Source: Rubricoccaceae bacterium
GTDB taxonomy: Bacteria > Bacteroidota > Rhodothermia > Rhodothermales > Rubricoccaceae
Direction: 5' to 3'
Assembly (NCBI GenBank): GCA_043789155.1
Contig: JAYWIE010000465.1
Span: 1 to 35,795, forward strand
Length of the DNA stretch: 35,795 nt
This document shows positions 1,031 to 30,452 of the stretch, in pieces. The position numbers and the translations under genes are program-made. A model generated the notes under the pieces. The model was given only the letters and a program-made list of their open reading frames with translations, was not told the DNA's origin and ran no database searches. Each line of letters begins with the position of its first letter. Positions within the stretch are counted from its first letter, which is position 1.

Positions 1031-1050
1031 GACCCGCGGCGATTCGGGTC
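1031..1050. terminator. Hairpin between convergent genes (GACCCG-N8-CGGGTC); possible bidirectional terminator
   Basis: A 6-bp inverted repeat fills the 18-nt gap between the stop at 1028..1030 (+) and the stop at 1049..1051 (-). There is no U-tract. Confidence 0.3.
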
Positions 1051-2857
1051 AGTGCGCGGGGTTCAGGAGGGGAGAGGGCACCGAGTCGTCCCCGGTCTGC
1101 ATCGTGTTGAAGTCGAGCACCCGCCGGAGCGCGCCGTGGCGGAGGACGATCCGGCCGTCGTCGCGGGCGGCCTGCATGAACGGGCCGTCGTAGAGCGGCC
1201 ACGCGGCGTAGTCCACCGGCTCGCCGTCGATGCGCGGCACGGTGCCGTAGGCCGCGTCGATCGTGACGCCGCGCAGCGTGGTGAACCGGACGGTCGGGAC
1301 GGGCGACGTCTCGATCACCAGCGGGAGCGCGCGGATGACGTCGCGGAACGCGTCTGCCGTGGCGTAGGCATCGGCCGGGGCGACCTGCACGACGGCGCCG
1401 TTCTGCAGATGCGGGCTGTGCAGCCGGCGGTCGCCGCCCGGCTCCGGCTGCCACGTGTAGGGTGCGAGGGGGAAGTACGCGATCCGCGCCCCGCCACCTC
1501 GCGCGGTGATCCAGCCCGAGGCGTCCTCGTGGACCTCCTCCAGCGTCCGCGAGAAGTAGCCGCTGACGTGCGGGAAGCGGACGCCCGGTGGGATGTCGTA
1601 GAGCGCGACGAGCGCGTCCTCGTGCTGGACGACCTGCTGGTACGGAGAGCCGCCGGTCCACTTGCCCGGCGTGTCGTACGTGCCCTTCAGGTGGTCGACC
1701 ATCGCCTGCACGAGCAGCCGCGGCTCCTCGGCGAAGTACATCCCCATCTCGTGCGCGTCGGAGTAGGGGTGGAGCGCGAAGAGGACGTTGAAGCCTTCGT
1801 GCGGGTCGGCCGTGGCCCACTGCACCTCCCACGTGTGCTGCTGGATGGGCTGCAGCAATCCGCCCTGGACGGAACCAACGGCGTAGGCCGGGCTCATGAA
1901 GGCGGTCTTGTAGACCGGCGCGTCGGCCTCGGGGCCGTAGCGAATCCGGTGGCGCGTCCGCTTCAACTCGCGGTGGACGTACGGCGCCTCGCGGTCCGTC
2001 GCCATCCGGGTGACGACCTCGGGCGGGCGGTAGCCACTGAGCGCAAGGTAGAGCGCCGTGCCGTGCGGCCGGTATCCGGCTCGCGGGAGCACGACGTTGA
2101 CAGCGTCCGGGCGGAACGGCGTGTTGCCGAAGAGGAGCCAGGCGAAGCTCGTGCTCCCGTTCTTCCAGCGCTCCAGCGTCGGCTCTGGATAGACTCGGCT
2201 GAAGGCACCGGCGTAGAGCCCGTTAAGCGTGTCCGCAGCGAAGTCCGAGATCAGGAGGTCGAGCAGCATCTCGGCGCGGCGGCGCATCTCCGGGGCGTCG
2301 GCGAAGGCGTAGAGCAGCGCGAGCGGCGCGAGGAAGAACGGCAGGTAGTGCGGCGAGTCGAACTCGCCTTGCCCGCGCGTCACGGTGAGGCGGGTCCAGT
2401 GGCGGAGGTAGTCGTCCGTCTCGGCCATGTTCTCAGCAGCGCTGCGGCCGTTGAACCACGTCTCGGCCGGGCTGTCCGGGTCGAGCTGGCAGGCGAGGTA
2501 CAGCGATGCGTGGTACATCGCCCAGTGGTTCTCGGTGTCGCCGCGGTAGGGCGTGGTGGTGCGCCAGAGGTCCCGCATCCGGGCCAGCACGTCCGCCGGC
2601 AGCCGCTCGCGGCCGACGTGCTGGACGAGGGTCATCGGGAGCATCCAGAACATGTCCCCGTGCGGCTCGGCGAGGTGCGACTCGAGCAGCGGGAGCACGC
2701 GGTCGAGCGGGTCGCCGCGGCGGAGCCTGGCGGCGACCTCGATGTGGTCGAGCCGGGGAGTGCCGACGTCCTCGCGGTCAGCGTAGTGGTCGAGCAGCGC
2801 GGTGCACCGGTCGCCGTAGGTGGAGCCGGCCGGGTCGGTCAGGATGGACGACGTCAT
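1049..2857 (-). CDS. Conserved ~600-aa protein of unknown family, cytoplasmic paralog; possibly an alpha/alpha-toroid type glycan-active enzyme
   Basis: These are the last 602 codons of track ORF 1049..3847. The first 330 codons of that ORF are Arg/Pro-rich and overlap the well-supported 2854..3783 gene out of frame. I therefore placed the start at ATG 2857 (MTSSILTDP), which gives an ATGA stop/start overlap. There is no signal peptide. It shares long identical blocks with 20371..22242: GDMFWM, PYRGDTENHWA, APYVHRELKRTRHRIRY, GGLLQPIQQ, EDALVALYDI and WPLYDGPFM. Confidence 0.75.
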   Translation of the reverse strand: MTSSILTDPAGSTYGDRCTALLDHYADREDVGTPRLDHIEVAARLRRGDPLDRVLPLLESHLAEPHGDMFWMLPMTLVQHVGRERLPADVLARMRDLWRTTTPYRGDTENHWAMYHASLYLACQLDPDSPAETWFNGRSAAENMAETDDYLRHWTRLTVTRGQGEFDSPHYLPFFLAPLALLYAFADAPEMRRRAEMLLDLLISDFAADTLNGLYAGAFSRVYPEPTLERWKNGSTSFAWLLFGNTPFRPDAVNVVLPRAGYRPHGTALYLALSGYRPPEVVTRMATDREAPYVHRELKRTRHRIRYGPEADAPVYKTAFMSPAYAVGSVQGGLLQPIQQHTWEVQWATADPHEGFNVLFALHPYSDAHEMGMYFAEEPRLLVQAMVDHLKGTYDTPGKWTGGSPYQQVVQHEDALVALYDIPPGVRFPHVSGYFSRTLEEVHEDASGWITARGGGARIAYFPLAPYTWQPEPGGDRRLHSPHLQNGAVVQVAPADAYATADAFRDVIRALPLVIETSPVPTVRFTTLRGVTIDAAYGTVPRIDGEPVDYAAWPLYDGPFMQAARDDGRIVLRHGALRRVLDFNTMQTGDDSVPSPLLNPAH

Positions 2858-3783
2858 GGCGTGGCGGGGGGCGGCGTCCAGACGAGGCGGCGAACGGTCG
2901 CGTCGGGCAGGCCTGCCGGGAGGGCGGGGGCGTCGCCGTCCACGACGAACACGCCGGTCTCGGACGTCCCGACCCAGAGACGGCCGGGCACGACCGGGTC
3001 GAAGGCGAGGGACATGACGGTCGGGCCGGAGGGCGCGAGCGGCCGGTGCTCCCACGATGCGCCGCCGTCGGCGCTGAGGAGCAGGCCGGTTCTGTACCCG
3101 GCGGCAGCCATGCGGCGCGGGTCCGCAGGATCGAGGGCGACGGCGTAGACGACGACGTCTCCGGCCGTGACGCAGGTCCATGTGTCGCCGTTGTCGGTAG
3201 ACCGCCAGGCACCGGCACCGTCGGTGCCCAGCAGCCACGTCGCCGGCTCCGACGCGCTCTGCACGACCGACCGGACCGGCGCGCGAGGCCCGACCGCCGT
3301 CCACGGGACACGCCCGGCGTCGGTGCGAAACAGCCCGGCCTCCGTCCCGACGATGAGGTGCTCCGGCGCGGCGACGTCGGGGACGACGACCGTGGTGAAC
3401 CGGGCGTTCAGGCCGCCTACGTCGGTGGGGGAGGGGCACCACGTGTCGCCCGCGTCGTCGGAGCACCAGAGGCCGTAGGCCGTGGCCGCCCAGAGGCGGT
3501 CCGGCGCGTGCGGGTCCAGGGCGATGTCCAGCACCTCGGTCACGCGCCAGTCGGTCGTGACGCGCCACGACGCGCCGCCGTCGCGGGAGCGGAGCACGCC
3601 GTTGCCGCAGGCGAGGACGATCGCGCGAGGCGACGCGGCGAGGCCGAAGCAGCGCACATTCGTCCAGCCGCGGTGCTCCCAGACGTCTCCGAAGCGGACG
3701 TAGAGGCCGCTCGCGGCATTGGCCTCGCCGACGACGTAGCCGCGCGATTCGAGGATGGCAGCATGAAGGACGGGTGGCGGCAT
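2854..3783 (-). CDS. BNR/Asp-box repeat beta-propeller protein, cytoplasmic paralog
   Basis: 309-aa ORF with four canonical Asp-boxes (SRDGGASW, SDDAGDTW, STDNGDTW, SADGGASW). It has no signal peptide and no room for one, since no start codon lies upstream of 3783 in this ORF. It is a paralog of 22239..23267 (shared GNGVLR, TTDWRVTEV). Confidence 0.8.
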   Translation of the reverse strand: MPPPVLHAAILESRGYVVGEANAASGLYVRFGDVWEHRGWTNVRCFGLAASPRAIVLACGNGVLRSRDGGASWRVTTDWRVTEVLDIALDPHAPDRLWAATAYGLWCSDDAGDTWCPSPTDVGGLNARFTTVVVPDVAAPEHLIVGTEAGLFRTDAGRVPWTAVGPRAPVRSVVQSASEPATWLLGTDGAGAWRSTDNGDTWTCVTAGDVVVYAVALDPADPRRMAAAGYRTGLLLSADGGASWEHRPLAPSGPTVMSLAFDPVVPGRLWVGTSETGVFVVDGDAPALPAGLPDATVRRLVWTPPPATP

Positions 3784-4009
3784 CGGTGTTTCCTCGACGG
3801 TCGTCTGGTGGAGCGGCCCTGGTCTGCACCGGCCTCAGAGTACGCATCAGGGCCGGTTCGTGGCCCGGCTCGCCGGTGCGGCCGCCCGGATCCAGTCGAC
3901 GCGCGCGCCAATCGCGCAGCGCCCGGTTGCCGCAGTCTCCGCGCCCGTGCTACCATGGCCCGTTCCGCGGCACGCGCCGCTCCGCTGCAGAACCAGGCCC
4001 CACCGAACC

Positions 4010-5880: not shown

Positions 5881-6702
5881 TTGGAACAGGAAGGCCGCTA
5901 CATCATCCCCTCGCTCGACCGGGCCATCAAGGTGCTCGGGGTGCTCGCACACGAGCCCCAGGGGACGACCCTCGCCGACCTGGCTCGCAGCTCAGGGATT
6001 CCCAAGAGCACCCTTTTCAGGATTCTCGTGACTCTCCAGAAGCACCACTGCGTCGTTCTCAGCCCAGACGGCCGGACGTTCCGGCTGGGCTCCCACCTCT
6101 GGGAGCTGGGCAGCCGCTTCGCCGACCAGTCGGACCTGTTTCGCGTCTCCGAGCCCTACATGACGGCGCTCGCCGACGAGTGTGGCGAGACGGTCTTCCT
6201 GAGCAAGCTCGAAGACGGGGAGGTGGTCTACCTCCGGCGGATCGAGAGCCCCAAGTCCATCGCGGCCGTCAAGAAGCTCCAGTCCCGCGCGCCCGTCCAC
6301 TGCACCGCGACCGGCCGCGCCCTGATCGCCTGGCTCCCGGCCCTCGAGATCGACGCCATCCTCGACCAGCGAGGCGTCGAGCCGTACAACGCCGCGACCG
6401 TCACGAGCCGCGTCGAACTGAAGGCGCTGCTCAGCGAGGTCCGCGACAACGAGTATGCGGTCGTCAACGGCGAGTTCAACGACGAGCTCCTGTGCGTGGC
6501 GGCACCTGTGCTGGACCATCAGCGCCGCCCGTCCGCGGCCCTCACGGTGGCGATGCTGTCGGCCCAGGTGTCAGACCGCGCCGCCATCGATGCGGTCTGC
6601 GTCGCCGTTCAGCGCGCGGCCCGCTCCCTCTCCCGAGAGCTTGGGGGGGGCGACCCCCTTCGGCCAGCGAGCGCCCCGGCGCTCACTGCCGGCGGTGCCT
6701 AG
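5881..6702 (+). CDS. IclR family transcriptional regulator
   Basis: 273-aa ORF with a TTG start. It has an N-terminal wHTH (SLDRAIKVLGVLA...LADLARSSGIPKSTLFRILVTL) and a C-terminal IclR effector-domain pattern (ETVFLSKLEDGEVVYL, TATGRALIAWLP, YAVVNGEFNDELLCVAAPV). Confidence 0.85.
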   Translation: MEQEGRYIIPSLDRAIKVLGVLAHEPQGTTLADLARSSGIPKSTLFRILVTLQKHHCVVLSPDGRTFRLGSHLWELGSRFADQSDLFRVSEPYMTALADECGETVFLSKLEDGEVVYLRRIESPKSIAAVKKLQSRAPVHCTATGRALIAWLPALEIDAILDQRGVEPYNAATVTSRVELKALLSEVRDNEYAVVNGEFNDELLCVAAPVLDHQRRPSAALTVAMLSAQVSDRAAIDAVCVAVQRAARSLSRELGGGDPLRPASAPALTAGGA

Positions 6703-6829: not shown

Positions 6830-9826
6830 ATGAGCACAGCTATTCCCCGGCGGTTCCTAGTTCTACTCGCGCTCGTCCTGCTCTCGGTAGCGCTTCCGCG
6901 CACGGCCGCCGCGCAGAGTGGAAAGCTGTCCGGCGTGATCACCGAAGCCGCGACGGGTCTCCCGCTCCCCGGCGCGACCGTCCGGCTCGACAGCACGCAG
7001 CTCGGCGGCCTCGCCGATGAGCAGGGGCGCTACAACGTCATCGGCATCACGCCGGGGACGTACTCCGTCCGCGTCTCGTTCATCGGGTACACGACGAAGG
7101 TCGCCCGGATCCGCGTCGTGTCCGCCGTGACGACCTCCTACGACGTCACCCTCGACGTGTCGACCGAGGAAGGAACCGAGGTGGTGGTGGTCGCCACCCG
7201 GCCGGTGGTCGACCAGAACCAGACGACGTCGCGAGCGCTCGTGACCGGAGAAGAGATCGAGCGGCTGCCCGTCACGACACTCCAGGAGGCGATTTCGCGC
7301 ACGTCGAACGCCTACGACGGCTTCATCCGAGGCAGCCGACGGTCTGAGACGCGCACGATCATCGACGGCGTCGATGTGAGCGACGCCCTCAACCAGGCGA
7401 CGACTGGCGGGACGATCGCGGGCAACACGTACAACAGCTCCAACCGCTTCAACCAGTCCAATGCCAGCCTGTTCACCCTCAGCCCGGACGGCGTCGAGGA
7501 GGTGACGGTCAACACGGGCGCGACGGGTGCCGAGTATGGCGCCGCGACGGGCGGCGTCGTCGCGATCACGTTGTCTGAGGGGCGCGGCCCCATCCGCGGC
7601 AACGCCTCGTTCCGCATCGCTCCGTCCATCGGGCGGCCCGGCCCGGACTCGCTCGGCTTCTACGGCGACGGCGACATCTACCTCCGGGAGCGGGACGAGC
7701 GGATCGCGGCCAACAGCCCCGCGGCCAGCCTCTTCACGTGGACGCCGGACCGGTACACGACCGGCCAGCCGGAGATGGACGCGCGCCTCTCGCTTGGCGG
7801 CTCCATCACGGACCGCATCAGCTTCTTCGCGACAGGGCAGGCGTTCCAGACGAATGGCTACCAGCCCAACGAGTTCTCGCGCCGGCTCAACGGCCAGCTC
7901 AAGACCACCGCCAGCCTGACGTCCAGCACGCGGCTGAGCCTGCTCGGGATCGTCGAGGACCGCGGCCTCTGGGGCAACTGGAACAACCGGAGCTACAGCG
8001 ACTTCTGGCGCTTCAACCTCGAGGGCCTCGCGCAGAACGACGGCGGCAGCTACCTCGGCTCGGCGCGCCTCACGCAGATCCTCTCGGCGAGCTCCTTCAT
8101 GGAGGTCCAGGCGTACCGCACCTTCAAGCGGAACCGCTTCGGCTACGTCGACGACAACAACAACGGCTTCTCCGAGCAGGGCGAGCAGGGCTCCTTCATC
8201 GACTTCACGAACCCGGAGACCATCGCCCGCTACGTCGGGGTCGGGAGCGACCACTCGCGGATGTTCTTCGAGAACATCTCCGACGCCTACTCGAGCACCG
8301 GCCTCACGCTGCCGAGCGGCAGCCGCTTCAAGGCGGGCCAGCCGATGCCGTACTCCGAGGACGCCACGCAGGGCACCAACGCGGTCCGGGCCAACTACAA
8401 CAACCAGGTCACTCCGAACCACTACGTCCAGGCCGGGACCGAGCTCAAGCTGTACTCCTTCCAGTATCAGCAGGTCTACGGCATCGACCAGACAGGTGCC
8501 AAGCTCAACGGTGCCCGCGAGCCCTACCAGCTCCAGGAGTGGGACCGCCACCCGTGGAACCTTGGCCTCTTCGCGTCGGACCGCATGGAGTATGGCGGCC
8601 TGATCGTCAACATGGGCTTGCGGGTCGAGTTCGCGAACCGGGACATGGAGGTCATCAACGACTACTTCCACCCGTTCCGCCGCGACACCGTCGAGGCCGG
8701 CATCGTGTACCAGGCGGCCCCCGACGGCACCGTGGCACCGCTGCTTAATGCCGCCGGCGAGCAGGTCGTGCGCCGGCTCGCCCGCAACGCCTTCGACCGC
8801 GGCGAGGCCGTCGCGACGGACGTCTTCTTCAACCCGAGCTTCGGCGTCTCGCACCCGATCGGCGAGACGGCCTCGATGTACTTCTCGTTCGCACGCAACA
8901 GCCAGCTCGTTCCCTACACGACGCTCTACCAGTACTACGACGGCAACAGCTCGAACAACCAGTTCTTTACGTACCAGAACCCCGAACAGGAGGCGATAAC
9001 GGCGAACAACTATGAGCTGGGTGGCCAGTGGGAGTTCGCGCGCGGCTGGGGTCTGGACGTGAATGCGTACATGCGGAGCATCGAGAACTACGGCCAGGCC
9101 GTGCTCACGGCGACCAACCGCGCCGGGACGCCGAGCTTCGCCGGCGGCACCTACAGCTACGCCACGAGCGCCGGCTACGCCGACTCCCGCGGCATCGAGC
9201 TGGTCCTCCGCCGCCGCCCGCTCCGCCTCTCCCGCGGCGTCTCGCTGGGCCTGACGGGCTCCTACACGTTCTCGACCATCGAGACCTCGAACTTCGCCGG
9301 CACCAACGTCACCGGGTTCGTCGCACGGGACAGCAGCATGACGACGCTGCCGTTCGAGAACACCCAGGACTTCCGCAACTACCCGCAGGACGTGCGCGGC
9401 GGGGCCTCGACGCTCACCGGCGGCTACGGCAGGACGCACCGCTTCGTCCTTCGGTCGGTCGCAGCGCTGCCCTACGACGTGTCGCTCGGACTGACGAGCA
9501 ACTTCGACAGCGGCTTCCTCTTCCCCCGGGCGATCGACGCCGACCCGCGTGACCGCGAGCTCCTCACGGGCCCGTCGAACTACCAGATCGACCTCCGCCT
9601 CGAGAAGCGGTTCGCCTTCACGAGCCGGTTCGGCCTCGACCTGTTTCTCGACGCGATCAACCTGACGAACCACCGCAACATCGTCGCCTACGACACCTCG
9701 ACGCCGGGCCTCGCCCGCACCTTCGAGGAGACCGGAAGCCCCGGCCCCCGCCTCGTCCTGGGCGACGGGACGGCGCTCTACGGGCCTGCCCGCTCCTTCT
9801 ACTTCGGGACGCGCGCCCGCTTCTAG
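6830..9826 (+). CDS. TonB-dependent outer-membrane receptor with N-terminal carboxypeptidase-regulatory-like domain
   Basis: 998 aa. It has a signal peptide ending AAAQ, followed by GKLSGVITEAATGLPLPGATVRL...GRYNVIGITPGTYSVRVSFIGY (CarbopepD_reg-like). A plug-like segment follows (VVVATRPVVDQNQTTS...LPVTTLQEAI...IRGSR). The barrel is long, and the protein ends in a C-terminal aromatic residue (TRARF). Confidence 0.9.
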   Translation: MSTAIPRRFLVLLALVLLSVALPRTAAAQSGKLSGVITEAATGLPLPGATVRLDSTQLGGLADEQGRYNVIGITPGTYSVRVSFIGYTTKVARIRVVSAVTTSYDVTLDVSTEEGTEVVVVATRPVVDQNQTTSRALVTGEEIERLPVTTLQEAISRTSNAYDGFIRGSRRSETRTIIDGVDVSDALNQATTGGTIAGNTYNSSNRFNQSNASLFTLSPDGVEEVTVNTGATGAEYGAATGGVVAITLSEGRGPIRGNASFRIAPSIGRPGPDSLGFYGDGDIYLRERDERIAANSPAASLFTWTPDRYTTGQPEMDARLSLGGSITDRISFFATGQAFQTNGYQPNEFSRRLNGQLKTTASLTSSTRLSLLGIVEDRGLWGNWNNRSYSDFWRFNLEGLAQNDGGSYLGSARLTQILSASSFMEVQAYRTFKRNRFGYVDDNNNGFSEQGEQGSFIDFTNPETIARYVGVGSDHSRMFFENISDAYSSTGLTLPSGSRFKAGQPMPYSEDATQGTNAVRANYNNQVTPNHYVQAGTELKLYSFQYQQVYGIDQTGAKLNGAREPYQLQEWDRHPWNLGLFASDRMEYGGLIVNMGLRVEFANRDMEVINDYFHPFRRDTVEAGIVYQAAPDGTVAPLLNAAGEQVVRRLARNAFDRGEAVATDVFFNPSFGVSHPIGETASMYFSFARNSQLVPYTTLYQYYDGNSSNNQFFTYQNPEQEAITANNYELGGQWEFARGWGLDVNAYMRSIENYGQAVLTATNRAGTPSFAGGTYSYATSAGYADSRGIELVLRRRPLRLSRGVSLGLTGSYTFSTIETSNFAGTNVTGFVARDSSMTTLPFENTQDFRNYPQDVRGGASTLTGGYGRTHRFVLRSVAALPYDVSLGLTSNFDSGFLFPRAIDADPRDRELLTGPSNYQIDLRLEKRFAFTSRFGLDLFLDAINLTNHRNIVAYDTSTPGLARTFEETGSPGPRLVLGDGTALYGPARSFYFGTRARF

Positions 9827-9868
9827 TCCGGCCGCCTCTGGCCCCCTCTCCCTCAGATCGGTCCTGAC

Positions 9869-12514
9869 ATGAAAAACGTCTTGTTAAACGGCGTGCTCTC
9901 GCTGGCGGTGGTGGCTGGAGCCGCGATGCCCGCTGCGGCACAACGGCGAGACCGTCCGTCCACCGCGCTCCAGTACGCTGGCCGAAATGCGGCCACCACC
10001 GCGGGCGACGGCTACCTCGTCGGCGGAGACCTCTGGAACACGTTCAAGCCGGCCAACACGACCGAGGGCACGCGCCTCGGCAGCCCGTTCGCGCCCGTCG
10101 GCGGCGGCATCGTGAACCGCGTCCTGTTCGGGTCCCGCGCCAACTGGCAGGAGCCGACGGGCCTCTGGCCCTCGGGCTTCAACTTCACCAACTCGTTCCG
10201 CAACTCGGGCTTCATGGTGTTCCCGGTGTTCAAGAGCACCGGCTGGCCCGGGTACGGCCCCGGCAACGCGGTCCGTGCCCTGGACGGGAGCGCGGACACG
10301 CGAGGCACCGGCGGCACGAGCCGGTTCATGTTCGCCAGCTTCGGCCCCAACGTGCCCGGCGCCACCGACGCGGCGCGCAACTACAAGCGCCCGGCGCACT
10401 ACACGGACGAGAGCCGGACGGAGCTCATCTACGAGGCCGGCTGGCCGACCACGGCCGGCATCGACTTCAAGGTCCGCGCGCGCCAGTACACGCCCAACAC
10501 GCAGAACCTGAACGACTTCACGGTCCTCGAGATCTCGATGACCAACACGGGCATCGTGGACACGAACGGCGACGGAACGCCCGACGCCACCGGCAACGTC
10601 GTCGACGGCGTCTCGATGGGCCTCGACGTCACGGCCTCGCCCTCGATCGAGATCAGCACGGGCGGCGACCGCGGCTGTAACTGCATCGCCGCCGGCCGCA
10701 CGTTCGGCTACGTCGGGGCCCCGGATGCGACAGGTGCCCCGTACAACCTCTGGGCGTGGTACGCCAACGTGCCGCCGACCCAGACGGCTGGCCGGACCGT
10801 CCCGGCCGTCGGGCGCCGCGCCTTCGGCATCAACAACCTGAACCAGCTCCAGGGCTACACGGACGTTTGGAACTCGATGAGTTTCCTCGGTGCCAAGCAG
10901 GGGGCGATCTCGGACAGCAACCTGCGCCTCATCTCGTCCGTGTCGCCGGACAAGTCGACGGCCTTCGGGACCCACCCCGTTGGGACCGGCCCGCAGCGCG
11001 GGTGGTACACCTCGGTCCAGTGGCAGGCCGGGCTCGCGAGCCTCTCCAACTCGGCCCTCGCCTTCCGCAACTCGACGGCGACGTGGTACGCGGACTACGG
11101 CAAGACCTCCAACGGCGGGAGCCGCCCCGTGAACCTGGCCCCGAACCCGGCCTTCTTCTCCGGCGGCTCGGCGGACGACATCACGACGTTCACCGTCGGC
11201 AACGCCGGCGCACGCCCGAACGGCGACTTCAAGTACGCCAACCAGGACCTCGGCGTGGCGAACGTCGAGCTGGCCCAGCCCGTCTGGGAGCCGGCCTGGA
11301 ACCCGGGCGCGGCCAGCGGCGACTTCTACAACGGCACGGTCGGGTTCGCCCGCGAGTACACGTTCGGTGAGGCCGAGACGCAAGGCATCGGGCCGTTCCG
11401 GCTCGGCGTCGGCGAGTCGATGACTATCGTGTGGGTCGCCGCCGCCGGCTTCCGGCTCGAGGGCATCGCCGACGCCGTCGATGCTGCGCGCTGGGCGTGG
11501 GGCACCGGATGGGACGTGAGCACACGCCTCCCCGTACCGGCCGCTCCCGACCTCACGATCGAGAGCACGACCACGGGCACGGCGCTCGTCCGCTGGACCG
11601 ACGTCAACAACGTCGCCGGCCGGCCCATCGACGGCTACAAGGTCTGGCGCTCGGCCCAGTACCGCCGCACGAACTGGCTCGACGCTGGGATGCGCCTCCA
11701 GGACCGGTACCAGGAGCAGCACGATCCGGGCCCGTTCCCGGCGACCCTGCTGGACCCGGTCAACCCCAACTTCGACGGCCTCAGCATCTTCCAGGGCGGC
11801 ATTCAGGGCTCCTACCAGCCGGCCGAGTGGGGCACCTACGAGCTGCTCGCCAAGATCCCGCTGAGCGCGCTGGGCACCTACACGAATCCCAGTGGCGGGT
11901 ACCAGTTCGCCTTCGAGGACACGGACTCGATCACGGGCTTCACCTACTGGTACTACGTGTCGGCCTACCGCGACGGTGCCTTCGTCGGGCCGCGCGGGCC
12001 GGTCGGCGGCGGTCACATCGAGTCGTCCAACATGAACCGGAACGGGCGCAACGCCCCCGATGCAACACCCGGCCAGATCGGCCTCGGCACGCAGTGGGGC
12101 GGGACGTATCCCTTCGCGATCAGCAGCGCGTTTTTCCCGCGGGCCGGGACGGTGGCCCTGAACAACATCGGTGCCGCCTTCACCGTGGTGCCGCCCGTGG
12201 CGCTGCCCGACCAGGTCGCAGACCTTATCACGGTGTCTCCGAACCCGTACAAGATCACCGGCCTCAACGACGTCCGTAACGACCCGGCGAGCCACTCGGT
12301 CAACTTCCTGAACGTGCCGGCGGACTTCACGCTGACGATCGTCGACGTCTCAGGCAAGCTCGTGTACCAGCGAGTGGTCGAGGGCGGTGCCAACGGACGC
12401 TTCAGCTGGGACCTGTTCTCGAAGGATGGGGTGGAGGTCTCGAGTGGTCTCTATCTCTACCACATCCAGTACGGCGACCGTAACGTCACCGGCCACTTCG
12501 CCATCCTGCGGTAG
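9869..12514 (+). CDS. Secreted 881-aa protein of unknown function with FN3-like segment and T9SS C-terminal sorting domain
   Basis: It has a signal peptide (MKNVLLNGVLSLAVVAGAAMPAAAQ) and an FN3-like stretch (PAAPDLTIESTTTGTALVRWTDV...IDGYKVWRS). A type-A T9SS tail is present. The gene starts 42 nt after the TBDT stop. Confidence 0.8.
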   Translation: MKNVLLNGVLSLAVVAGAAMPAAAQRRDRPSTALQYAGRNAATTAGDGYLVGGDLWNTFKPANTTEGTRLGSPFAPVGGGIVNRVLFGSRANWQEPTGLWPSGFNFTNSFRNSGFMVFPVFKSTGWPGYGPGNAVRALDGSADTRGTGGTSRFMFASFGPNVPGATDAARNYKRPAHYTDESRTELIYEAGWPTTAGIDFKVRARQYTPNTQNLNDFTVLEISMTNTGIVDTNGDGTPDATGNVVDGVSMGLDVTASPSIEISTGGDRGCNCIAAGRTFGYVGAPDATGAPYNLWAWYANVPPTQTAGRTVPAVGRRAFGINNLNQLQGYTDVWNSMSFLGAKQGAISDSNLRLISSVSPDKSTAFGTHPVGTGPQRGWYTSVQWQAGLASLSNSALAFRNSTATWYADYGKTSNGGSRPVNLAPNPAFFSGGSADDITTFTVGNAGARPNGDFKYANQDLGVANVELAQPVWEPAWNPGAASGDFYNGTVGFAREYTFGEAETQGIGPFRLGVGESMTIVWVAAAGFRLEGIADAVDAARWAWGTGWDVSTRLPVPAAPDLTIESTTTGTALVRWTDVNNVAGRPIDGYKVWRSAQYRRTNWLDAGMRLQDRYQEQHDPGPFPATLLDPVNPNFDGLSIFQGGIQGSYQPAEWGTYELLAKIPLSALGTYTNPSGGYQFAFEDTDSITGFTYWYYVSAYRDGAFVGPRGPVGGGHIESSNMNRNGRNAPDATPGQIGLGTQWGGTYPFAISSAFFPRAGTVALNNIGAAFTVVPPVALPDQVADLITVSPNPYKITGLNDVRNDPASHSVNFLNVPADFTLTIVDVSGKLVYQRVVEGGANGRFSWDLFSKDGVEVSSGLYLYHIQYGDRNVTGHFAILR
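12227..12511 (+). other. T9SS type-A C-terminal sorting domain (Por secretion tail) of the 881-aa protein
   Basis: ITVSPNPY...FTLTIVDVSGKLVYQ...FSWDLFSKDGVEVSSGLYLYHIQYGDRNVTGHFAILR matches the familiar PNP / short beta-strand / W-D-G / SG-Y-Y-Y / basic C-terminus pattern. Confidence 0.8.
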
Positions 12515-12550
12515 GCCGACCCCTCGGCCCCGCATCTCTACGCTACCGCT

Positions 12551-13561
12551 ATGAACAAAGGACTGGCACTCTCCATCCTCCTGGGCAGCCTGGCCGCTAT
12601 GCCCGCGCAGGCCCAGCGCAACGCCGGGCGCAACGGCGCGACCTTCCTCGAGGTCGGCGTCGGAGCGCGCGAAGTGGCCATGGGCTCGGCCGTGAGCTCC
12701 CTCAGCAACGACGCGAACCAGATCTTCTGGAACCCGGCGGGCACCGCCCTCCGGGACGACCAGCAGGCCAGCGCAGCGTTCTCCTACGGGAGCTGGATCG
12801 GCGACATCGGCTACACCGCCGTCGCGGCTGGCTACAACCTCGGCTCTGCCGGCACGGTCACGGCTGGCATCCAGGCCTTCGGCGTGAACGGCATCCCCGC
12901 GAACCGGCAGAACGGGTACGACGACCCGGTCCTCCAGGGGCAGGTCACGGACACGGAGACGTCGGAGACGTATGACTACCAGGACCTCGCCGTGAGCCTG
13001 ACGTACGCGCGCACCTTCGCCGGCCGTCTCGCGCTCGGCGCGACGGCAAAGGTCATCAACGAGTCCGTCGACGGCGTCAGCGCGAGCGCGGTCGGGTTCG
13101 ACTTCGGCTCCGTGTACAACATCGGGGTCAGCGACTGGAGGGTCTCCGCCCGGCTGAACAACCTGGGCACGAACATAACCTTCTACAACCAGCCGAACCC
13201 GCTCCCGCTCACGTTCACCATCGGGACGTCGATCTACCCGATCAACACCGAGCAGGTGCGCATGATGGTCGCGCTCGACGCCGTGAAGCAGCAGGACACG
13301 CAGCAGTTGTTCTTTGGCGGGACCGAGGTGTCGTTCTACGACCTCCTGTTCCTCCGCGGCGGCTACAAGTTCAACTACAGCGGCTCTTCCGATGGCGGCA
13401 CGGCCGATCGCGACCCGATCGACACGACGATCGAGAACTACTCGCTCGGCGGGGGCATCCAGTACGTCATCGCCGACAAGCCGGTCGCCATCGACTACGC
13501 GTTCACGAGCATGGACATGTTCACGAACGTCCACCGCGTCTCGCTGCGGGTCGGCTTCTGA
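12551..13561 (+). CDS. PorV/PorQ family outer-membrane beta-barrel protein (T9SS-associated)
   Basis: 336 aa with a signal peptide (AAMPAQAQ). The N-terminal signature GATFLEVGVGAREVAMGSAVSSLSNDANQIFWNPAG is typical of the PorV/PorQ (UPF0164-like) family. The rest has beta-barrel-like alternating sequence and ends in F. The gene starts 36 nt after the preceding gene. Confidence 0.75.
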   Translation: MNKGLALSILLGSLAAMPAQAQRNAGRNGATFLEVGVGAREVAMGSAVSSLSNDANQIFWNPAGTALRDDQQASAAFSYGSWIGDIGYTAVAAGYNLGSAGTVTAGIQAFGVNGIPANRQNGYDDPVLQGQVTDTETSETYDYQDLAVSLTYARTFAGRLALGATAKVINESVDGVSASAVGFDFGSVYNIGVSDWRVSARLNNLGTNITFYNQPNPLPLTFTIGTSIYPINTEQVRMMVALDAVKQQDTQQLFFGGTEVSFYDLLFLRGGYKFNYSGSSDGGTADRDPIDTTIENYSLGGGIQYVIADKPVAIDYAFTSMDMFTNVHRVSLRVGF

Positions 13562-13648: not shown

Positions 13649-13748
13649 AGAGAGGCCGAGAGGGGTAGATCTGTCTGAGCACCACCCTGTCGACAGATGC
13701 GGGTTGCAGCACGCGCTGCCCTCCGCGCACGTCTGGCCGTCCATTGTC

Positions 13749-13770
13749 CTCGCCGCGTTCGCGCGGCGAG
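13749..13770 (+). promoter_or_regulatory. 9-bp GC stem with TTCG (UUCG) tetraloop in the leader of the downstream operon
   Basis: CTCGCCGCG-TTCG-CGCGGCGAG is a perfect complement. It lies in a stretch with non-coding-like codon statistics. Confidence 0.35.
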
Positions 13771-13792
13771 CGATCACCAGCCTCTCAATCCA

Positions 13793-15370
13793 GTGATTCG
13801 CGTGTCGACCCCGTCGGGGACATGGTCGGCCCTCTGTGGCCGGCTGCTCGGGTTCCTCGGTGCGGACGTGATCCGCATGACCGTGGACGGGGCCGAGGTC
13901 TCCGGCTTCCGCAGCCCGGACTCTCCAGCGCTGTGGATCCGCGACCATTCGGACATCCTACGCGGCGGCGTCTACATGCACACGGACGTGCAGAGCGCCA
14001 TCGACCTCTTCGCCGAGTACCAGTCCGCCAGCGGGCGGCTCTTCGACTACGTCACGACGGAGGCCGGGACTGAGCCGGAGAACTGGGAAAAGTGGGTGCG
14101 CGTCCCCGTCGAGGCGGACGTCGAGTACCGGTTCGTCAAGGCCGTCCATCTCGCGTGGCAGGCGACTGGGGACGACGCGTGGCTGGAGCGCCATCTCTCC
14201 GCCATGGACCGCGCGATGACGTACACCCGCACCCACCCGTGGCGGTGGGACGAGGAGCACGGCCTCGTCAAGCGCGCGTACACCATCGACACCTGGGACT
14301 TCGACTACACGGCCGGCCGGATGCCGTGGCTCAACTTCCAGATCACCCCGGACACCTTCTGGGGGATCATGCACGGCGACTCGAGCGGGTTCTACGAGGC
14401 CGCGCGGCTCCTGGCTGGCCACTACGAGCACCTCGGGCGCGACGCTGACGCGGCGCGCTGGACCGCCGAGGCCGAGGGCGTGCGGGAGCGGGCCAACGCG
14501 CTCCTCTTCAACGGCCGGTTCTACACCCACTTCCACACGCTCACGCCGGTCGAGATCGAGGGCGTGGACGAGGCCGAGCAACTCAGCCTGAGCAACCCGA
14601 TGGCGATCACGCGGGGCCTCGCCACGCACGAGATCGCCGTCGCCGTGCTGCGCGAATACCGCCGCCGGCGCGAGACGACGGGCGCCTTCGCCGAGTGGTT
14701 CAGCATCGACCCGCCGTTTCCGGACGGGACGTTCGGCGACGAGCGGCAGGTCGCCGGGTCGTACGTCAACGGCGGCGTGCTGCCGCTCGTCGGCGGCGAG
14801 CTGGCGCGGGGCGCGTTCGAGCACGGCATGGAGACCTACGGCGTCGAGACGCTCGCGCAGTACGCCGCGATGGTCGCGGAGGCGGGGGAGACCTACCTCT
14901 GGTACTTCCCTGACGGACGTCCCTCGACCGTCGAGACGAGCACGAGCCCGAACGCGATGCCGACCGACGGCTGGGGCGCCTCGGCCATGCTCAACGGGCT
15001 CGTCGGCGGGCTGTGCGGCATCGAGGACCGTAGCCACTCGTTCCGCGACGTCCGCTGCTCCCCGCGTTGGGCCGCCGCGGGAGAGGACGACGCTGACGTC
15101 CGCGTCGAATACGAGGCGTCGGGTGCCGGCTTCGGCTACCGCTACACGCACGACGCATCGGCGCGGACGATCCGCGTCGAGATCGAGGCCAATGAGGCGA
15201 CCGTGGACCTGCGGGTGCTGCTGCCGGCCGGCACGCAGCCCGTCGCCCTGAGCTGGGACGGCGAGCCCGTCACACCGACCGCCGACCGGGTCGAGCAGAG
15301 CGTGTACGCGGGCGCGCAGCGCCCGGTCCGCGCCCGCGCATCCGTCGAGGTGACGTATGGCGACGCATAG
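13793..15370 (+). CDS. Six-hairpin (alpha/alpha)6 glycosidase-like protein of uncertain family; no signal peptide
   Basis: Track ORF 13697..15370. In codons 1-32 (13697..13792), 14 of 32 codons end in A/T. In the next 28 codons only 4 of 28 do, which matches the rest of the gene. Translation therefore more likely starts at GTG 13793 or ATG 13877. Motifs seen: WIRDHSD, YVNGGVLPLVGGELA, and DGWGASAMLNGLVGGLCGI followed by a beta-rich C-terminus. Confidence 0.6.
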   Translation: MIRVSTPSGTWSALCGRLLGFLGADVIRMTVDGAEVSGFRSPDSPALWIRDHSDILRGGVYMHTDVQSAIDLFAEYQSASGRLFDYVTTEAGTEPENWEKWVRVPVEADVEYRFVKAVHLAWQATGDDAWLERHLSAMDRAMTYTRTHPWRWDEEHGLVKRAYTIDTWDFDYTAGRMPWLNFQITPDTFWGIMHGDSSGFYEAARLLAGHYEHLGRDADAARWTAEAEGVRERANALLFNGRFYTHFHTLTPVEIEGVDEAEQLSLSNPMAITRGLATHEIAVAVLREYRRRRETTGAFAEWFSIDPPFPDGTFGDERQVAGSYVNGGVLPLVGGELARGAFEHGMETYGVETLAQYAAMVAEAGETYLWYFPDGRPSTVETSTSPNAMPTDGWGASAMLNGLVGGLCGIEDRSHSFRDVRCSPRWAAAGEDDADVRVEYEASGAGFGYRYTHDASARTIRVEIEANEATVDLRVLLPAGTQPVALSWDGEPVTPTADRVEQSVYAGAQRPVRARASVEVTYGDA

Positions 15371-16241
15371 CCTCCCCTGGAAACGGCCCTCTGCGGAGAC
15401 CAGGACGGCGTACGGGATGCTCGTCCCGACGCTCGTCTTCTTCGTCGTCTTCCAGTACTACCCGATCCTGAAAAGCATCGGGATCAGCTTCTTCGACTAC
15501 GGCCTGCTCCGCCGCGACACGCCGTTCGTCGGGATGGCGAACTACGTCCGCCAGTTCCACGACCCGCTCTTCCTCGCGGCGATCCGCAACACGCTCGTCT
15601 TCGTCAGCGCGGCCGTCGTGATCGGCGTGATCCTGGCGCTCGCGCTGTCGGTGCTCGTCGAGCAGACGGGTCGCTGGGCCCAGTTCTACCGCACGCTCTA
15701 CTTCATCCCCGTCGTGACGTCGCTCATGGCGACGTCGATGGTCTGGCGGTGGCTCTACGCCTCGAACGGGCTCATCAACTTCGGGATGGCCGCGATGGGC
15801 TTCGAGCCCCAGGCGTGGCTGCTGAGCGAGCACCTCGCGCTGCCGTCGCTGGTCGTGCTGACGGTCTGGAAAAACCTCGGCTTCGACCTCATCCTGTTCG
15901 TCGCCGCGCTGCAGGCCATCCCCGGCGACCTCTACGAGGCGTCCAGCCTCCAGGGCGCGACGGCCTGGCAGAACTTCCGCTACATCACGCTCCCGATGCT
16001 CCGGCCGATGGTCGTGCTCGTCGCCGTGACGGCCGTCATCCGGTCGTTCCAGGTGTTCACGATCGTCGTGGCGATGACCCAGGGCGGGCCCGTCAACGCG
16101 ACGCGCAGCGTGGTCTACCACATCTACGAGCAGGGCGTCCAGTACGACGAGATGGGCTACGCCTCGGCGGCGGCCGTCATCCTGCTGATCCTCGTCGGGG
16201 TCGTCACCTTCTTCCAGCTCCGGCTGGACCGCGAACCCTGA
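15357..16241 (+). CDS. ABC transporter permease (carbohydrate type, MalF/UgpA-like)
   Basis: 294 aa with multiple TM segments. The EAA loop reads YEASSLQGATAWQNFRYITLPMLRP. It overlaps the upstream gene by 14 nt. Confidence 0.9.
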   Translation: MATHSLPWKRPSAETRTAYGMLVPTLVFFVVFQYYPILKSIGISFFDYGLLRRDTPFVGMANYVRQFHDPLFLAAIRNTLVFVSAAVVIGVILALALSVLVEQTGRWAQFYRTLYFIPVVTSLMATSMVWRWLYASNGLINFGMAAMGFEPQAWLLSEHLALPSLVVLTVWKNLGFDLILFVAALQAIPGDLYEASSLQGATAWQNFRYITLPMLRPMVVLVAVTAVIRSFQVFTIVVAMTQGGPVNATRSVVYHIYEQGVQYDEMGYASAAAVILLILVGVVTFFQLRLDREP

Positions 16242-16249
16242 GGTGCACC

Positions 16250-16330
16250 ATGGTCGGACGCCGAGACATGCTCAAGCGCGCCGTGCAGGCAGCCGGCCTC
16301 GCCGCGCTGCCTCTGGTATCGGCTGCGGCT
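16250..16330 (+). other. Twin-arginine (Tat) signal peptide
   Basis: GRRDMLK matches the S/T-R-R-x-F-L-K consensus in the key positions. A hydrophobic AAGLAALPLV segment and an AAA cleavage-like site follow. Confidence 0.7.
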
Positions 16331-17569
16331 GAGACCCGCCCGCTCGTGCGGGTGCCGGCCGTGCGGCCGGCCGTGCGGCCGGCCGTGCGGCCAGCCGCGC
16401 TGCCGGCGGCCGCGGACCCGGACTACTGGGACCGCGTGCGCGACCTCTATCCGCTCACGCGCGAGCGGGCCTACCTCAACGCGGGCGGGCTCGGCCCCGC
16501 GCCGTACCCGGTCCTCGACGCCGTCGCGCGGCTGACGGCCGAGCTGCAGCGGATCTCCGAGCACGGGCACGAGCACATCGAGCCGGCGCGCGTCGCCGTC
16601 GCGGCGTTCCTCGGGGCGTCGCCGGCCGAGATCGCGCTCACGCGCAACGCGACCGAGGGCAACGCGACCATCGCCTCGGGCCTCGACCTGCGCCCCGGCG
16701 ACGAGGTCGTCTTCGAGTCCCACGCGCACCCCGGCGGCTCGTTCGCGTGGATGAGCCGCCAGCTCAGCCGCGGCATCCGCGTCCGCACCTTCGAGCCTGA
16801 CCCGACGAGCGCTGCCGGCAACCTCGAGCGCATCGCGGCGCAGCTCACGCCGCGGACGCGCGTGATCCAGGTCAGCCACGTCACGGCACCGACCGGCATC
16901 CGGATGCCGGTCGAGCAGATCGCGGTGCTCGCCCGCGACCGCGGCCTGTGGTTCCACATCGACGGCGCGCAGTCCGCCGGCATGATCCCCGTCGACCTCC
17001 ACGCCATCGGGTGCGACTCGTACGCTACGTGCGGGCACAAGTGGATGGGCGGGCCGCACGGAACGGGTGCCCTCTACGTCCGCCAGGACCGTCTCGGCGA
17101 GATCATGCCGACCGAGGTCGGTGCCTACAGCGACGGCGGCGACGTCCGCCTGCCGGACCGGTTCTCATACGCCCCGACGGCCGTCCGCTACGAGCCGGGG
17201 ACGCGCAACGCGGCCCTGGACGTCGGGCTGGCGGCGGCGGCGGCGTTCCAGACCGAGATCGGGACGGAGCGCATCGCCGCGCGAAGTCAGCACCTGGCGC
17301 ACTACCTCCAGGGCCAGCTCCGCGAGATCCCGGGCGTCGAGATCCTGACGCCGGCCGACCCCGCGCTCTCCGCGGCCATCACGACGCTCCGGACCGCGCG
17401 CGTGCCGTACCGCGAGCTCGACGCGCGCTACCACGCGGCCGGCCTCCGCTGCCGCATCGTCGGTGAGCAGGGGATCGACGCCGTGCGCGTCTCGACCCAC
17501 ATCTACACCAGCGAGGCCGAGTGCGACCGCGTCGCCGACGCGACGCGCGCAGCCCTCGGCCAGCGCTAA
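16250..17569 (+). CDS. Tat-signal-bearing aminotransferase class V fold PLP-dependent enzyme
   Basis: This is the C-terminal 439 codons of track ORF 15749..17569, starting at ATG 16250. The N-terminus MVGRRDMLKRAVQAAGLAALPLVSAAA carries a twin-arginine motif plus an h-region. Class V motifs are present: RAYLNAGGLGP, TRNATEG, HIDGAQSAG and TCGHKWMGGPHGTGALY (PLP lysine). Confidence 0.85.
   Translation: MVGRRDMLKRAVQAAGLAALPLVSAAAETRPLVRVPAVRPAVRPAVRPAALPAAADPDYWDRVRDLYPLTRERAYLNAGGLGPAPYPVLDAVARLTAELQRISEHGHEHIEPARVAVAAFLGASPAEIALTRNATEGNATIASGLDLRPGDEVVFESHAHPGGSFAWMSRQLSRGIRVRTFEPDPTSAAGNLERIAAQLTPRTRVIQVSHVTAPTGIRMPVEQIAVLARDRGLWFHIDGAQSAGMIPVDLHAIGCDSYATCGHKWMGGPHGTGALYVRQDRLGEIMPTEVGAYSDGGDVRLPDRFSYAPTAVRYEPGTRNAALDVGLAAAAAFQTEIGTERIAARSQHLAHYLQGQLREIPGVEILTPADPALSAAITTLRTARVPYRELDARYHAAGLRCRIVGEQGIDAVRVSTHIYTSEAECDRVADATRAALGQR
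16361..16396 (+). repeat. 12-nt tandem repeat x3 (GTGCGGCCGGCC, third copy GTGCGGCCAGCC) encoding (VRPA)3
   Basis: Read directly from the sequence. It sits immediately after the Tat signal peptide. Degenerate related sequence precedes it (16346..16360). Confidence 0.9.
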
Positions 17570-17575
17570 CCCACT

Positions 17576-18487
17576 GTGGCACACCTCCCGACCGTCCTCC
17601 CGGCCCTCCCGCAGCCGGCCCCGCGCCGGCGGTGGCGACGCCCCGCAGCCGGGAGCGTCGCGGTCCACGCCGTGCTGCTGCTCGGCGGCCTTGTCATGGT
17701 CGGGCCGCTCGTGTGGATGGTGCTCACGTCGCTCAAGACGTCCGCCAACGCGGAGGCCTTCTTCAACACGCCGCACCAGATCGGGGCTGTGCTCCGGAGC
17801 CTCTGGCCGGACCCGCTCACGCTGGACAACTACCGCGCGGTGTTCAGCGAGCGGCCGATGGGGCTCTACTTCCTCAACAGCGCCCTCTACACCGTCCTCC
17901 GCCTCATCCCGAGCCTGTTCCTCTGCTCGATGGCCGGCTACGTCTTCGCCAAGATGACCTTCCCGGGGCGGGACTGGATCTTCGGGGCCATCATCGTCAC
18001 GATGATGATCCCGTTCCAGATCAAGATGCTGACGCTCTACGAGATGATGGTCCGCGCCGGCTGGGTGGACTCCTACTGGGGCGTCGTCGTCGTCGGGCTG
18101 ATGGAGCCGCTGGGCATCTTCCTCTTCCGCCAGTCCATCCGCAACATCCCCGACGCACTGCTCGACGCCGCGCGCATGGACGGGGCCGGGCCGGTGCGGA
18201 TCTATTTCAGCATCGTGCTGCCGCTCATCCGCCCGACGCTGGCGGCCTACAGCATCTTCCTGTTCATGTGGTCCTGGAGCGACTTCCTGTGGCCGCTGAT
18301 CGTCATCAACACCGAGGCGCTCAAGCCGATCGAGGTCGGCATCCTGAGCTTCTCGGACCTCAACAATCCCGACTACGTCAAGATGATGGCCGCGGCGACG
18401 GTCGCCGTCGCGCCGGTCGTGGTGTTCTTCCTCTTCATGCAGCGCCAGTTCATCAAGGGCGTCACGCTCAGCGGGGTCAAGGGATGA
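17576..18487 (+). CDS. ABC transporter permease (carbohydrate type, MalG/UgpE-like)
   Basis: 303 aa with a GTG start. Motifs: PLVWMVLTSLKT and the EAA loop LDAARMDGAGPVRIYFSIVLPLIRP. Confidence 0.9.
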   Translation: MAHLPTVLPALPQPAPRRRWRRPAAGSVAVHAVLLLGGLVMVGPLVWMVLTSLKTSANAEAFFNTPHQIGAVLRSLWPDPLTLDNYRAVFSERPMGLYFLNSALYTVLRLIPSLFLCSMAGYVFAKMTFPGRDWIFGAIIVTMMIPFQIKMLTLYEMMVRAGWVDSYWGVVVVGLMEPLGIFLFRQSIRNIPDALLDAARMDGAGPVRIYFSIVLPLIRPTLAAYSIFLFMWSWSDFLWPLIVINTEALKPIEVGILSFSDLNNPDYVKMMAAATVAVAPVVVFFLFMQRQFIKGVTLSGVKG

Positions 18488-28439: not shown

Positions 28440-28557
28440 GGGTTGAGAGGTTACAAGGGTGAGGGGGAAGGCTGCTCCGTGGGGGCGTTGGCCACTCAAC
28501 CGCTGCCCTGCTCAACACTCGGCCTTCTCAATTCCCCACTTCCCACCCTCTCAACCC
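28440..28557 (+). repeat. Imperfect long inverted repeat spanning an intercistronic gap (G-rich 5' arm, C-rich 3' arm)
   Basis: GGGTTGAGAGG (28440..28450) is the exact complement of CCTCTCAACCC (28547..28557). An inner pair is GAAGGC (28467..28472) with GCCTTC (28522..28527). CTCAA(C/T) recurs four times in the 3' half. Confidence 0.6.
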
Positions 28558-28563
28558 GATCCA

Positions 28564-29325: not shown

Positions 29326-29329
29326 GACG

Positions 29330-30370: not shown

Positions 30371-30452
30371 GGCACCCGGTATGAGGCAACGGGCATGAGT
30401 GGAAGCCCCCATGCCCCGTTCCTTCACGATTCCACATCCAACCCTCTCCGAC

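Follow-up and report, generated by a model that had tools for sequence, protein, structure and literature searches.

The 35,795-nt contig JAYWIE010000465.1 of a Rubricoccaceae bacterium (GenBank assembly GCA_043789155.1), which we refer to as the window, spans 35.8 kb of the genome and carries three closely spaced genes that recur together across several phyla and may form a single outer-membrane uptake device. The first encodes a TonB-dependent receptor, the second an 881-aa secreted protein of an unnamed family, and the third a barrel of the PorV/PorQ family, a family known from type IX secretion systems (T9SS). All three open reading frames (ORFs) lie on the + strand, at 6830-9826 (998 aa), 9869-12514 (881 aa) and 12551-13561 (336 aa). 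The gaps between them, 42 nt between the receptor and 881-aa genes and 36 nt between the 881-aa and barrel genes, are those given in the preliminary description of this DNA.

6830..9826, + strand: TonB-dependent receptor, 998 aa, with signal peptide, CarboxypepD_reg domain, Plug and a large divergent barrel ending in F
aa 33-120 of the receptor, + strand: CarboxypepD_reg N-domain (Pfam)
aa 117-122 of the receptor, nt 7178-7195, + strand: TonB-box-like EVVVVA, conserved in orthologues
aa 129-243 of the receptor, + strand: Plug (Pfam)
9869..12514, + strand: 881-aa secreted protein of an unnamed family with 110 homologues
10004..11503 (aa 46-545), + strand: N-terminal all-beta region, nearly all strands in the model, proposed ligand-binding part
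11534..12028 (aa 556-720), + strand: FN3-like domain with insertions (model, FN3 fold matches, weak FN3 sequence matches)
12236..12511 (aa 790-881), + strand: T9SS type-A C-terminal domain (Foldseek matches to such domains, sub-threshold profiles)
12551..13561, + strand: PorV/PorQ-family outer-membrane barrel, 336 aa (NF033709), proposed dedicated tail holder

The third-position GC of the three ORFs (0.93-0.94) matches what is expected of a window with about 70% GC, and we therefore take them to be real genes. Because a scan for sigma-70 promoters and terminators returned nothing exceeding shuffles, the limits of the operon are left undefined. The nearest relatives of the window are genome bins of Rhodothermales and Rubricoccaceae, with 71-73% identity in the middle protein.

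Conservation of the trio was followed by a locus scan with one genome per species, which gave 80 loci; two more were retrieved by protein identity, and the window proteins were run by tblastn on all 82 to call gene order and strand. The hosts, labelled as in the deposited bins, are Rhodothermales and Salinibacter, Ignavibacteriota, Kryptonia, Latescibacterota, Gemmatimonadota and one bin labelled Acidobacteriota. Both flanks are readable for 68 gene copies, and 64 of these have the full trio with order and strand unchanged, with gaps of median ~19-20 nt; among 79 readable cases, 73 have a barrel homologue directly downstream of the 881-aa homologue. The preliminary description had raised the question of synteny in related phyla, and the triad is indeed found across Rhodothermota, Ignavibacteriota, Latescibacterota and Gemmatimonadota, as well as in Kryptonia, a spread of at least four or five phyla.

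The three proteins also diverge in step. Their pairwise identities correlate with r of 0.95-0.98 (61 trios and the window), and three contigs (L002, L027 and L049) hold a tandem pair of trios, with a separate barrel in each trio. The two trios of L002 (6852-13653 and 15139-21791) are 42, 40 and 48% identical to each other in their three parts, and the nearest relatives of the first are the same for all three of its proteins. This correlation, the divergence of L002 in every part and the shared nearest relatives lead us to conclude that the three genes are passed on and duplicated together; judged from sequence, the tandem trios would be old duplications of the whole unit, as their divergence indicates. 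The preliminary description had allowed that a core porV or porQ gene might stand here by chance. We rejected that explanation on the grounds of the conserved order, the tandem trios with their own barrels and the co-divergence. At L005 4941-7899, L010 5045-7954 and L022 8001-10570, all from long-read bins, the receptor or middle-protein matches are broken into several frames, which are probably assembly frameshifts and not pseudogenes.

With a plug, a TonB-box-like motif and a terminal aromatic residue, the 998-aa protein has the hallmarks of a TonB-dependent receptor. Its N-terminal domains score above all cut-offs (CarbopepD_reg_2 56.6 bits, CarboxypepD_reg 50.5, and Plug 31.1 against a cut-off of 23.9), the EVVVVA motif between the N-domain and the plug is kept in its orthologues, and its C-terminal residue is F. 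The Pfam model of the barrel has no match in the window receptor and is matched in the trio receptors of L085, L091 and L092. A comparison of the receptor with PDB sequences gave no match at E<=0.001.

The N-domain of the receptor had been described as typical of SusC-type transporters. This CarboxypepD_reg domain is real, but membership of the SusC/RagA family does not stand and was rejected: the model TIGR04056 gives 52.6 bits against a cut-off of 368 and aligns only with aa 32-371 (model positions 2-343). Because the match is low and confined to the N-terminal third, we regard the receptor as SusC-like in its N-terminal layout and as a non-member of the family. A SusC/SusD pair was rejected as well, as the product of the gene that follows has no match to SusD models of Pfam or NCBIfam, no lipobox and an all-beta model. 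SusD is thus missing from the SusD position, as the first reading of the sequence had it.

The 881-aa protein has a Sec signal peptide and lacks a lipobox cysteine. Its 110 homologues are mostly full-length and 31-80% identical to it. No family had been nameable for most of its length, and none emerged here: Pfam, NCBIfam, PDB profile, Foldseek and HMMER searches returned no characterised family. Pfam and NCBIfam had no match outside the tail, the family profile against PDB sequences matched only tails and FN3 domains at E>0.05, and Pfam found no head domain in six middle-protein relatives (four of them from the variant trios described below) or in the second middle protein of L002. Searched with HMMER against 1.84 billion representatives, the family profile recovered only ~26 full-length clusters and otherwise matched tails and FN3 domains; no other family sharing the head was found there, and so the head is family-specific.

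An AlphaFold2 model of the protein (predicted local distance difference test score, pLDDT, 76; predicted template-modelling score, pTM, 0.77) consists of a beta N-terminal region (~aa 46-545), a long helix, an FN3-like part (~aa 556-720) and the tail (~aa 790-881). The FN3-like segment seen in the preliminary description is supported by this model and by FN3 fold matches. When the full model was compared with PDB by Foldseek, nothing convincing matched the head, and no catalytic fold was recognised. The weak matches of the N-terminal region are to GH116, GH94 and ExoMA2 enzymes, with template-modelling (TM) scores of 0.17-0.19. The helical catalytic barrel of these enzymes is absent from the strand-only model, so that no catalytic fold is matched. 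Identity with a known glycoside hydrolase was rejected.

An alternative keeps the trio and its secretion route and makes the 881-aa protein a new-fold enzyme at the cell surface (a hydrolase, lyase or esterase), which would cut a polymer into fragments for import by the receptor, the barrel being its dedicated shuttle or anchor. About 90 positions of the N-terminal region are invariant, with D, E, R, N, W or Y at many of these, and the sole distant fold matches of this region happen to be glycoside hydrolases and phosphorylases. Paralogues of the protein that lie outside trios adjoin GH123_N, DUF5107 and BNR/dockerin genes, and classical secreted glycoside hydrolases are few in the window. On the other hand, the TM values are very low, the strand-only model offers no counterpart of the catalytic barrel, and Pfam, NCBIfam, PDB profile and HMMER place the protein in no catalytic family. 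We consider an enzyme unlikely, although it is the main rival of the explanation that we propose below.

The link to T9SS lies in the C-terminal tail. The model TIGR04183 gives 21 bits over the last ~70 residues against a cut-off of 23, and the CHU_C, FlgD_ig and PorZ-tail models are all sub-threshold. Some homologues match PF18962/TIGR04183 or bear the name "T9SS type A sorting domain-containing protein". The top Foldseek match of the C-terminus of the model is the C-terminal domain (CTD) of PorZ (5m11; E 5.7e-5, root-mean-square deviation 3.1, 103 columns), and the tail also matches the CTD of a translocon-bound substrate (8glk_D, target TM 0.73) and DUF3244. In other words, the model and Foldseek give the protein a beta-sandwich, CTD-like tail fold to go with its Sec signal, which backs the type-A tail claimed from the letters. 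It is also the best-conserved part of the middle protein, with a majority-residue fraction of 0.66 against 0.52-0.56 elsewhere, and its motifs PNPY and GLYIY...GHFAILR are close to invariant.

A type-A tail is normally cleaved by PorU. One can thus imagine that the barrel is a transient, cargo-specific T9SS shuttle, that the tail is cut and the protein released or linked to lipopolysaccharide, and that co-regulation is all that ties it to the receptor. There are models for such a barrel, because PorV is the shuttle of the canonical system and PorP/SprF-like barrels serve specific cargo (PMC10202324). However, a plain export signal is not expected to be the most conserved part of a protein across phyla, and the strict receptor-first order, the ~20-nt gaps and the co-divergence of the three proteins exceed what shared regulation would call for. 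We find this course of events improbable.

The 336-aa barrel matches the PorV/PorQ family model NF033709 with 170.3 bits against a cut-off of 90, in keeping with the signature noticed in the preliminary description. It lies under the equivalog cut-offs of PorQ (NF033711, 100.7 of 220 bits), PorV (NF033710, 56.6 of 250) and PorV2 (83.1 of 325), and its sequence weakly matches Flavobacterium johnsoniae PorV (E 2.7e-8). The model of the barrel has ~14 strands and finds its best fold matches in PorV (8gl6_F and 6h3i_F, TM 0.62-0.63), followed by FadL, TodX and TbuX. PorV is itself a member of the FadL fold, which together with these next-best matches could mean that the barrel acts as a diffusion channel of the FadL type, through which a hydrophobic portion of the substrate would pass, with no tie to the T9SS tail. 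We give this hardly any credence, as the best matches in both sequence and fold are PorV/PorQ and not FadL, and as a barrel follows a tail-bearing protein in the 73 of 79 readable cases and in four of four variant trios. Among the trio proteins, conservation is highest in the barrel, and this, with the tail as the most conserved part of the middle protein, fits a lasting contact between tail and barrel.

We propose, with a probability of about one half, that the trio is one outer-membrane uptake device in which a T9SS-exported capture protein is held by its uncleaved tail on a PorQ-like barrel and feeds the receptor. Sec would take the 881-aa protein across the inner membrane, and T9SS, via its CTD, across the outer one. 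The CTD would then stay uncut and bound to the extracellular side of the neighbouring barrel, a retention modelled on PorZ-PorQ and PorU-PorV, and the beta-rich N-terminal part would thereby be kept at the cell surface beside the receptor. There it would capture the substrate and pass it to the receptor for import with TonB energy, and the ABC (ATP-binding cassette) transporters and cytoplasmic enzymes encoded downstream would complete uptake and use. The data show the domain content, the conserved gene order, the joint inheritance and divergence of the three proteins and the way in which the middle protein varies by module; from sequences, gene order and models we infer the secretion route, the uncleaved tail, the tethering, the receptor contact, the ligand binding and the substrate. 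By analogy, the 881-aa protein would be the functional counterpart of the lipoproteins SusD/SGBP (surface glycan-binding protein), BtuG and RagB, anchored by a T9SS tail and a barrel and not by lipid, a comparison that we think has an even chance of being right. The preliminary description had inferred much the same role; each genomic prediction made there was borne out, which supports it in part.

The resemblance to SusC/SusD and to related pairs such as RagAB, BtuB-BtuG and XusAB is one of layout. In both cases the receptor gene comes first and the gene of the surface partner next, in a locus that is specific to a substrate and also contains catabolic genes and a regulator of its own, and the receptor is of ~1000 aa with a CarboxypepD_reg-type N-extension, a VVV-type TonB box and a plug. 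Unlike those systems, however, the trio has a partner that is no lipoprotein (it lacks the lipobox), shows neither the fold nor the sequence of SusD, RagB or BtuG and bears a T9SS tail. The trio also adds a third gene, for the PorV-family barrel; its receptor fails the SusC/RagA model, and it occurs mainly outside the class Bacteroidia, in Rhodothermota, Ignavibacteriota, Latescibacterota and Gemmatimonadota.

The closest parallel for the other two genes is found in the secretion system itself, where porU and porV are neighbouring genes in Porphyromonas gingivalis and F. johnsoniae. PorV shuttles tail-bearing cargo, whereas PorU and PorZ are cargo whose tails are not removed and which are kept on PorV and PorQ, respectively; cognate PorV-like barrels have been proposed to shield tails from cleavage (PMC10202324). 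According to the preliminary description, dedicated cargo-adjacent adaptors were not established for this arrangement, but these two pairs are a precedent for a PorV-family barrel next to its cargo. In each, a T9SS-exported protein keeps its CTD and sits on a 14-stranded PorV/PorQ-family barrel (PMC10202324), and the trio tail best matches the PorZ and PorU tails just as the trio barrel best matches PorQ and PorV. The trio differs in that its barrel is under both equivalog cut-offs, its 881-aa protein is unrelated to PorU and PorZ outside the tail, and the pair goes with a TonB-dependent receptor and is found in several copies per genome; retention of its tail would be a further likeness.

Two other kinds of barrel bear comparison. 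PorP/SprF-like barrels are deployed for particular cargo (PMC10202324) and, as with SprB-SprF and its type-B tail, are encoded beside that cargo, as the trio barrel is; the latter, in contrast, is of the PorV/PorQ family, is paired with a tail of type A and not B, and has a transporter attached. BamG, a FadL-like barrel in the BAM complex (the machinery for beta-barrel assembly) of Bacteroidota, uses its loops to hold BamH, a surface protein (PMC12578637). Here a 14-stranded barrel of the FadL/PorV fold is a permanent holder of an extracellular protein (PMC12578637), although BamH is a lipoprotein and the setting there is the assembly of outer-membrane proteins and not uptake.

The domain layout of the receptor (CarboxypepD_reg N-domain, plug, large non-SusC barrel), as distinct from a comparison of sequences, is also that of Oar-type transporters, and Oar of Myxococcus is a CarboxypepD_reg TonB-dependent transporter required for the secretion of PopC (PMC6434023). 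The link of Oar is with protein export, and it lacks a T9SS or PorV partner (PMC6434023). On that precedent the receptor might act outward and export the 881-aa protein, or the trio might build a surface layer or adhesin unrelated to uptake. The N-domain shared with Oar and the absence of a SusC-like barrel are in keeping with this, as is a receptor of that general kind, with an OMP_b-brl_4 barrel, beside the paralogue of the 881-aa protein in L060. Export, however, is already explained by a strongly conserved T9SS tail and a PorV-family partner, and the loci are rich in import and catabolic genes under a local regulator. We think an outward role very improbable.

Several observations weigh against the uptake device as we have drawn it. 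No T9SS core genes are found within the window, the sole part of the genome covered. The tail of the 881-aa protein lies just below the curated T9SS cut-offs, confidence in the barrel model is low to moderate (pLDDT 61), and any physical contact among the three proteins is putative. The many invariant D, E, R and N of the N-terminal region might belong to the active site of a new fold and not to a binding site. The middle protein P0291 has a receptor upstream and no recognisable barrel in the following 1.5 kb. Finally, some members of the 881-aa family are orphans without an adjacent receptor or barrel: the second copy in L043 and those of L045, L054 and L055 by the flank count, those of L042 and L060 by a low-threshold check, and P0108 and P0110. 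The orphans indicate that a protein of this family can function, or is at any rate maintained, with no partner gene next to it, and several are in bins whose same or other contigs hold a full trio. Their neighbours are GH123_N, DUF5107(-TPR), BNR/dockerin(-cohesin), URO-D, PhyH or U557 genes (U557 is described below), and in L060 the different receptor, of CarboxypepD_reg/OMP_b-brl_4 type, follows the orphan instead of preceding it.

L045, 7980-10481: orphan paralogue
L054, 1653-4211: orphan paralogue
L055, 5858-8344: orphan paralogue
L042, 314-2869: orphan paralogue
L060, 195-2804: orphan paralogue

Longer relatives of ~1350 aa also occur (P0108, at L083 5054-9121, P0236 and P0238). P0108 carries additional Ig-like (ASH/HYDIN-type) and SBBP domains and lies outside any trio.

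The family has a second kind of outlier in four very divergent middle proteins, P0277, P0280, P0379 and P0381, which align with it only from ~aa 488 to the end, a stretch that runs from the last sheet through the helix and the FN3-like part to the tail. Their N-terminal region is divergent from, or unalignable to, the 881-aa family. Each nevertheless stands between a CarboxypepD_reg TonB-dependent receptor and a PorV/PorQ-family barrel, and these barrels score 120-198 bits on NF033709, over the cut-off. Their tails score best on the PorZ model, and their barrels have higher scores with PorQ than with PorV. Such proteins suggest that the head varies while stalk and tail stay constant. We tentatively extend this, with somewhat less assurance than we attach to the device itself, to the phyla of the Fibrobacterota-Chlorobiota-Bacteroidota (FCB) group outside Bacteroidia, where the trio would be a general modular kit: a variable head on a constant FN3-like stalk and T9SS tail, with its own PorQ-like barrel, beside a TonB-dependent transporter.

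The surrounding genes bear on the substrate. Those in the window are as follows.

5881..6702, + strand: IclR-family regulator (IclR_C 133.7 bits, HTH_IclR 53 bits), likely regulator of the locus
13697..15370, + strand: U557, 557 aa, family-less, without an evident signal peptide; belongs to the wider locus and not to the trio
15357-18487, + strand: two ABC permease genes flanking a class-V aminotransferase gene (~16241-17569)
23301-24095 and 28459-31556, + strand: "demethylation" set
20371-22242, + strand: ORF of 623 aa, no family match
24196-25569, + strand: ORF of 457 aa, no family match
31550-33997, - strand: ORF of 815 aa, no family match
1049-3847, - strand: 932-aa ORF with a BNR/sortilin-repeat segment, at the window edge
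34146-35741, - strand: GxGYxYP putative glycoside hydrolase, at the window edge

An IclR homologue lies immediately upstream of the receptor in most Rhodothermales loci and in L001. U557 is found nearly always in the Rhodothermales and Ignavibacteriota loci, 0.1-6 kb downstream of the trio, and is 53-70% identical between the two groups, compared with 31-47% for the trio itself. It has no Pfam, NCBIfam or PDB match, and its start codon is uncertain, as alignments begin at ~aa 33-46. The extended locus is found again in L001 with 55% identity, and the order of permease, aminotransferase and permease genes is also seen there at ~55% identity. The long ORFs of 623, 457 and 815 aa look coding by their third-position GC of 0.96-0.97; the first two were scanned with Pfam and NCBIfam, the third with Pfam.

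Elsewhere in the window are genes for a solute-binding protein, Gfo/Idh/MocA dehydrogenases, xylose-isomerase-like TIM barrels and a short-chain dehydrogenase/reductase, along with two PhyH dioxygenases, a Rieske/VanA-type O-demethylase oxygenase and a MetE-like protein. The BNR-repeat ORF and the GxGYxYP gene are consistent with a carbohydrate-use island, and the Kryptonia trio is adjoined by a GH38 gene and a weak, below-cut-off GH127-like match. A "demethylation" set, made up of a Rieske/VanA_C oxygenase of O-demethylase type, a protein that is either MetE-like (Meth_synt_2) or URO-D-like, and PhyH dioxygenases, recurs near trios or orphans in several phyla. The neighbouring genes, with this set among them, suggest that the substrate in the window is probably a glycoside or oligosaccharide, possibly O-methylated. 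At other trios the company is different. Those of Latescibacterota and Gemmatimonadota are flanked by genes for a ~1500-aa protein with Peptidase_M28 and an FtsX-like permease and for a DUF6785/DUF6784 protein, which may be a different inner-membrane partner system, and the trio of P0277 adjoins Peptidase_M55 and gamma-glutamyltranspeptidase genes.

L002, 13749-14774: "demethylation" set
L046, 11456-12481: "demethylation" set
L055, 3293-4459: "demethylation" set
L060, 6259-7359: "demethylation" set
L056, 13077-17504 and 1662-3668: M28-FtsX and DUF6785/DUF6784 genes
L076, 11749-16350 and 16328-18277: M28-FtsX and DUF6785/DUF6784 genes

Such peptidase, M28-FtsX and DUF6785 neighbours indicate that the device is probably not restricted to glycans. 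The word "glycan" in the preliminary description thus suits the neighbours in the window but not the trios that adjoin peptidase or M28-FtsX/DUF6785 genes.

We found no description of a trio of receptor, tailed protein and PorV-family barrel in open-access papers and bioRxiv. In a table for the xylan locus of R. marinus, Rmar_1070-1072 are listed as a TonB-dependent receptor, a tail-bearing hypothetical protein and a hypothetical protein (PMC6987092). Going by the table annotation, these genes may be an unrecognised instance of the trio, and we mention them as an unconfirmed lead. A transporter with a surface partner is a known principle, and so is a PorV-family barrel that holds an uncleaved tail. 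What appear to be undescribed are the combination of the two, the new family of ~880 aa and the spread of the unit across phyla.

SusCD-type systems explain nutrient capture in Bacteroidota but depend on surface lipoproteins. Rhodothermota, Ignavibacteriota, Latescibacterota and Gemmatimonadota, which are abundant in soils, sediments and saline waters, have many TonB-dependent receptors without SusD. A conserved unit of receptor, tailed protein and barrel would offer a concrete and testable answer as to how these receptors are loaded. It would also assign a job to numerous unexplained PorV/PorQ paralogues, show T9SS tails as permanent anchors for uptake machinery and serve as a marker for annotating uptake loci in metagenomes, and the finding defines a family of ~880-aa proteins with a new all-beta head domain. 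If the modular kit proposed above is real, it would parallel the SusCD principle without using lipid and would give PorV-family barrels a third role, after those of shuttle and attachment complex, with different heads for different nutrients such as glycosides and peptides.

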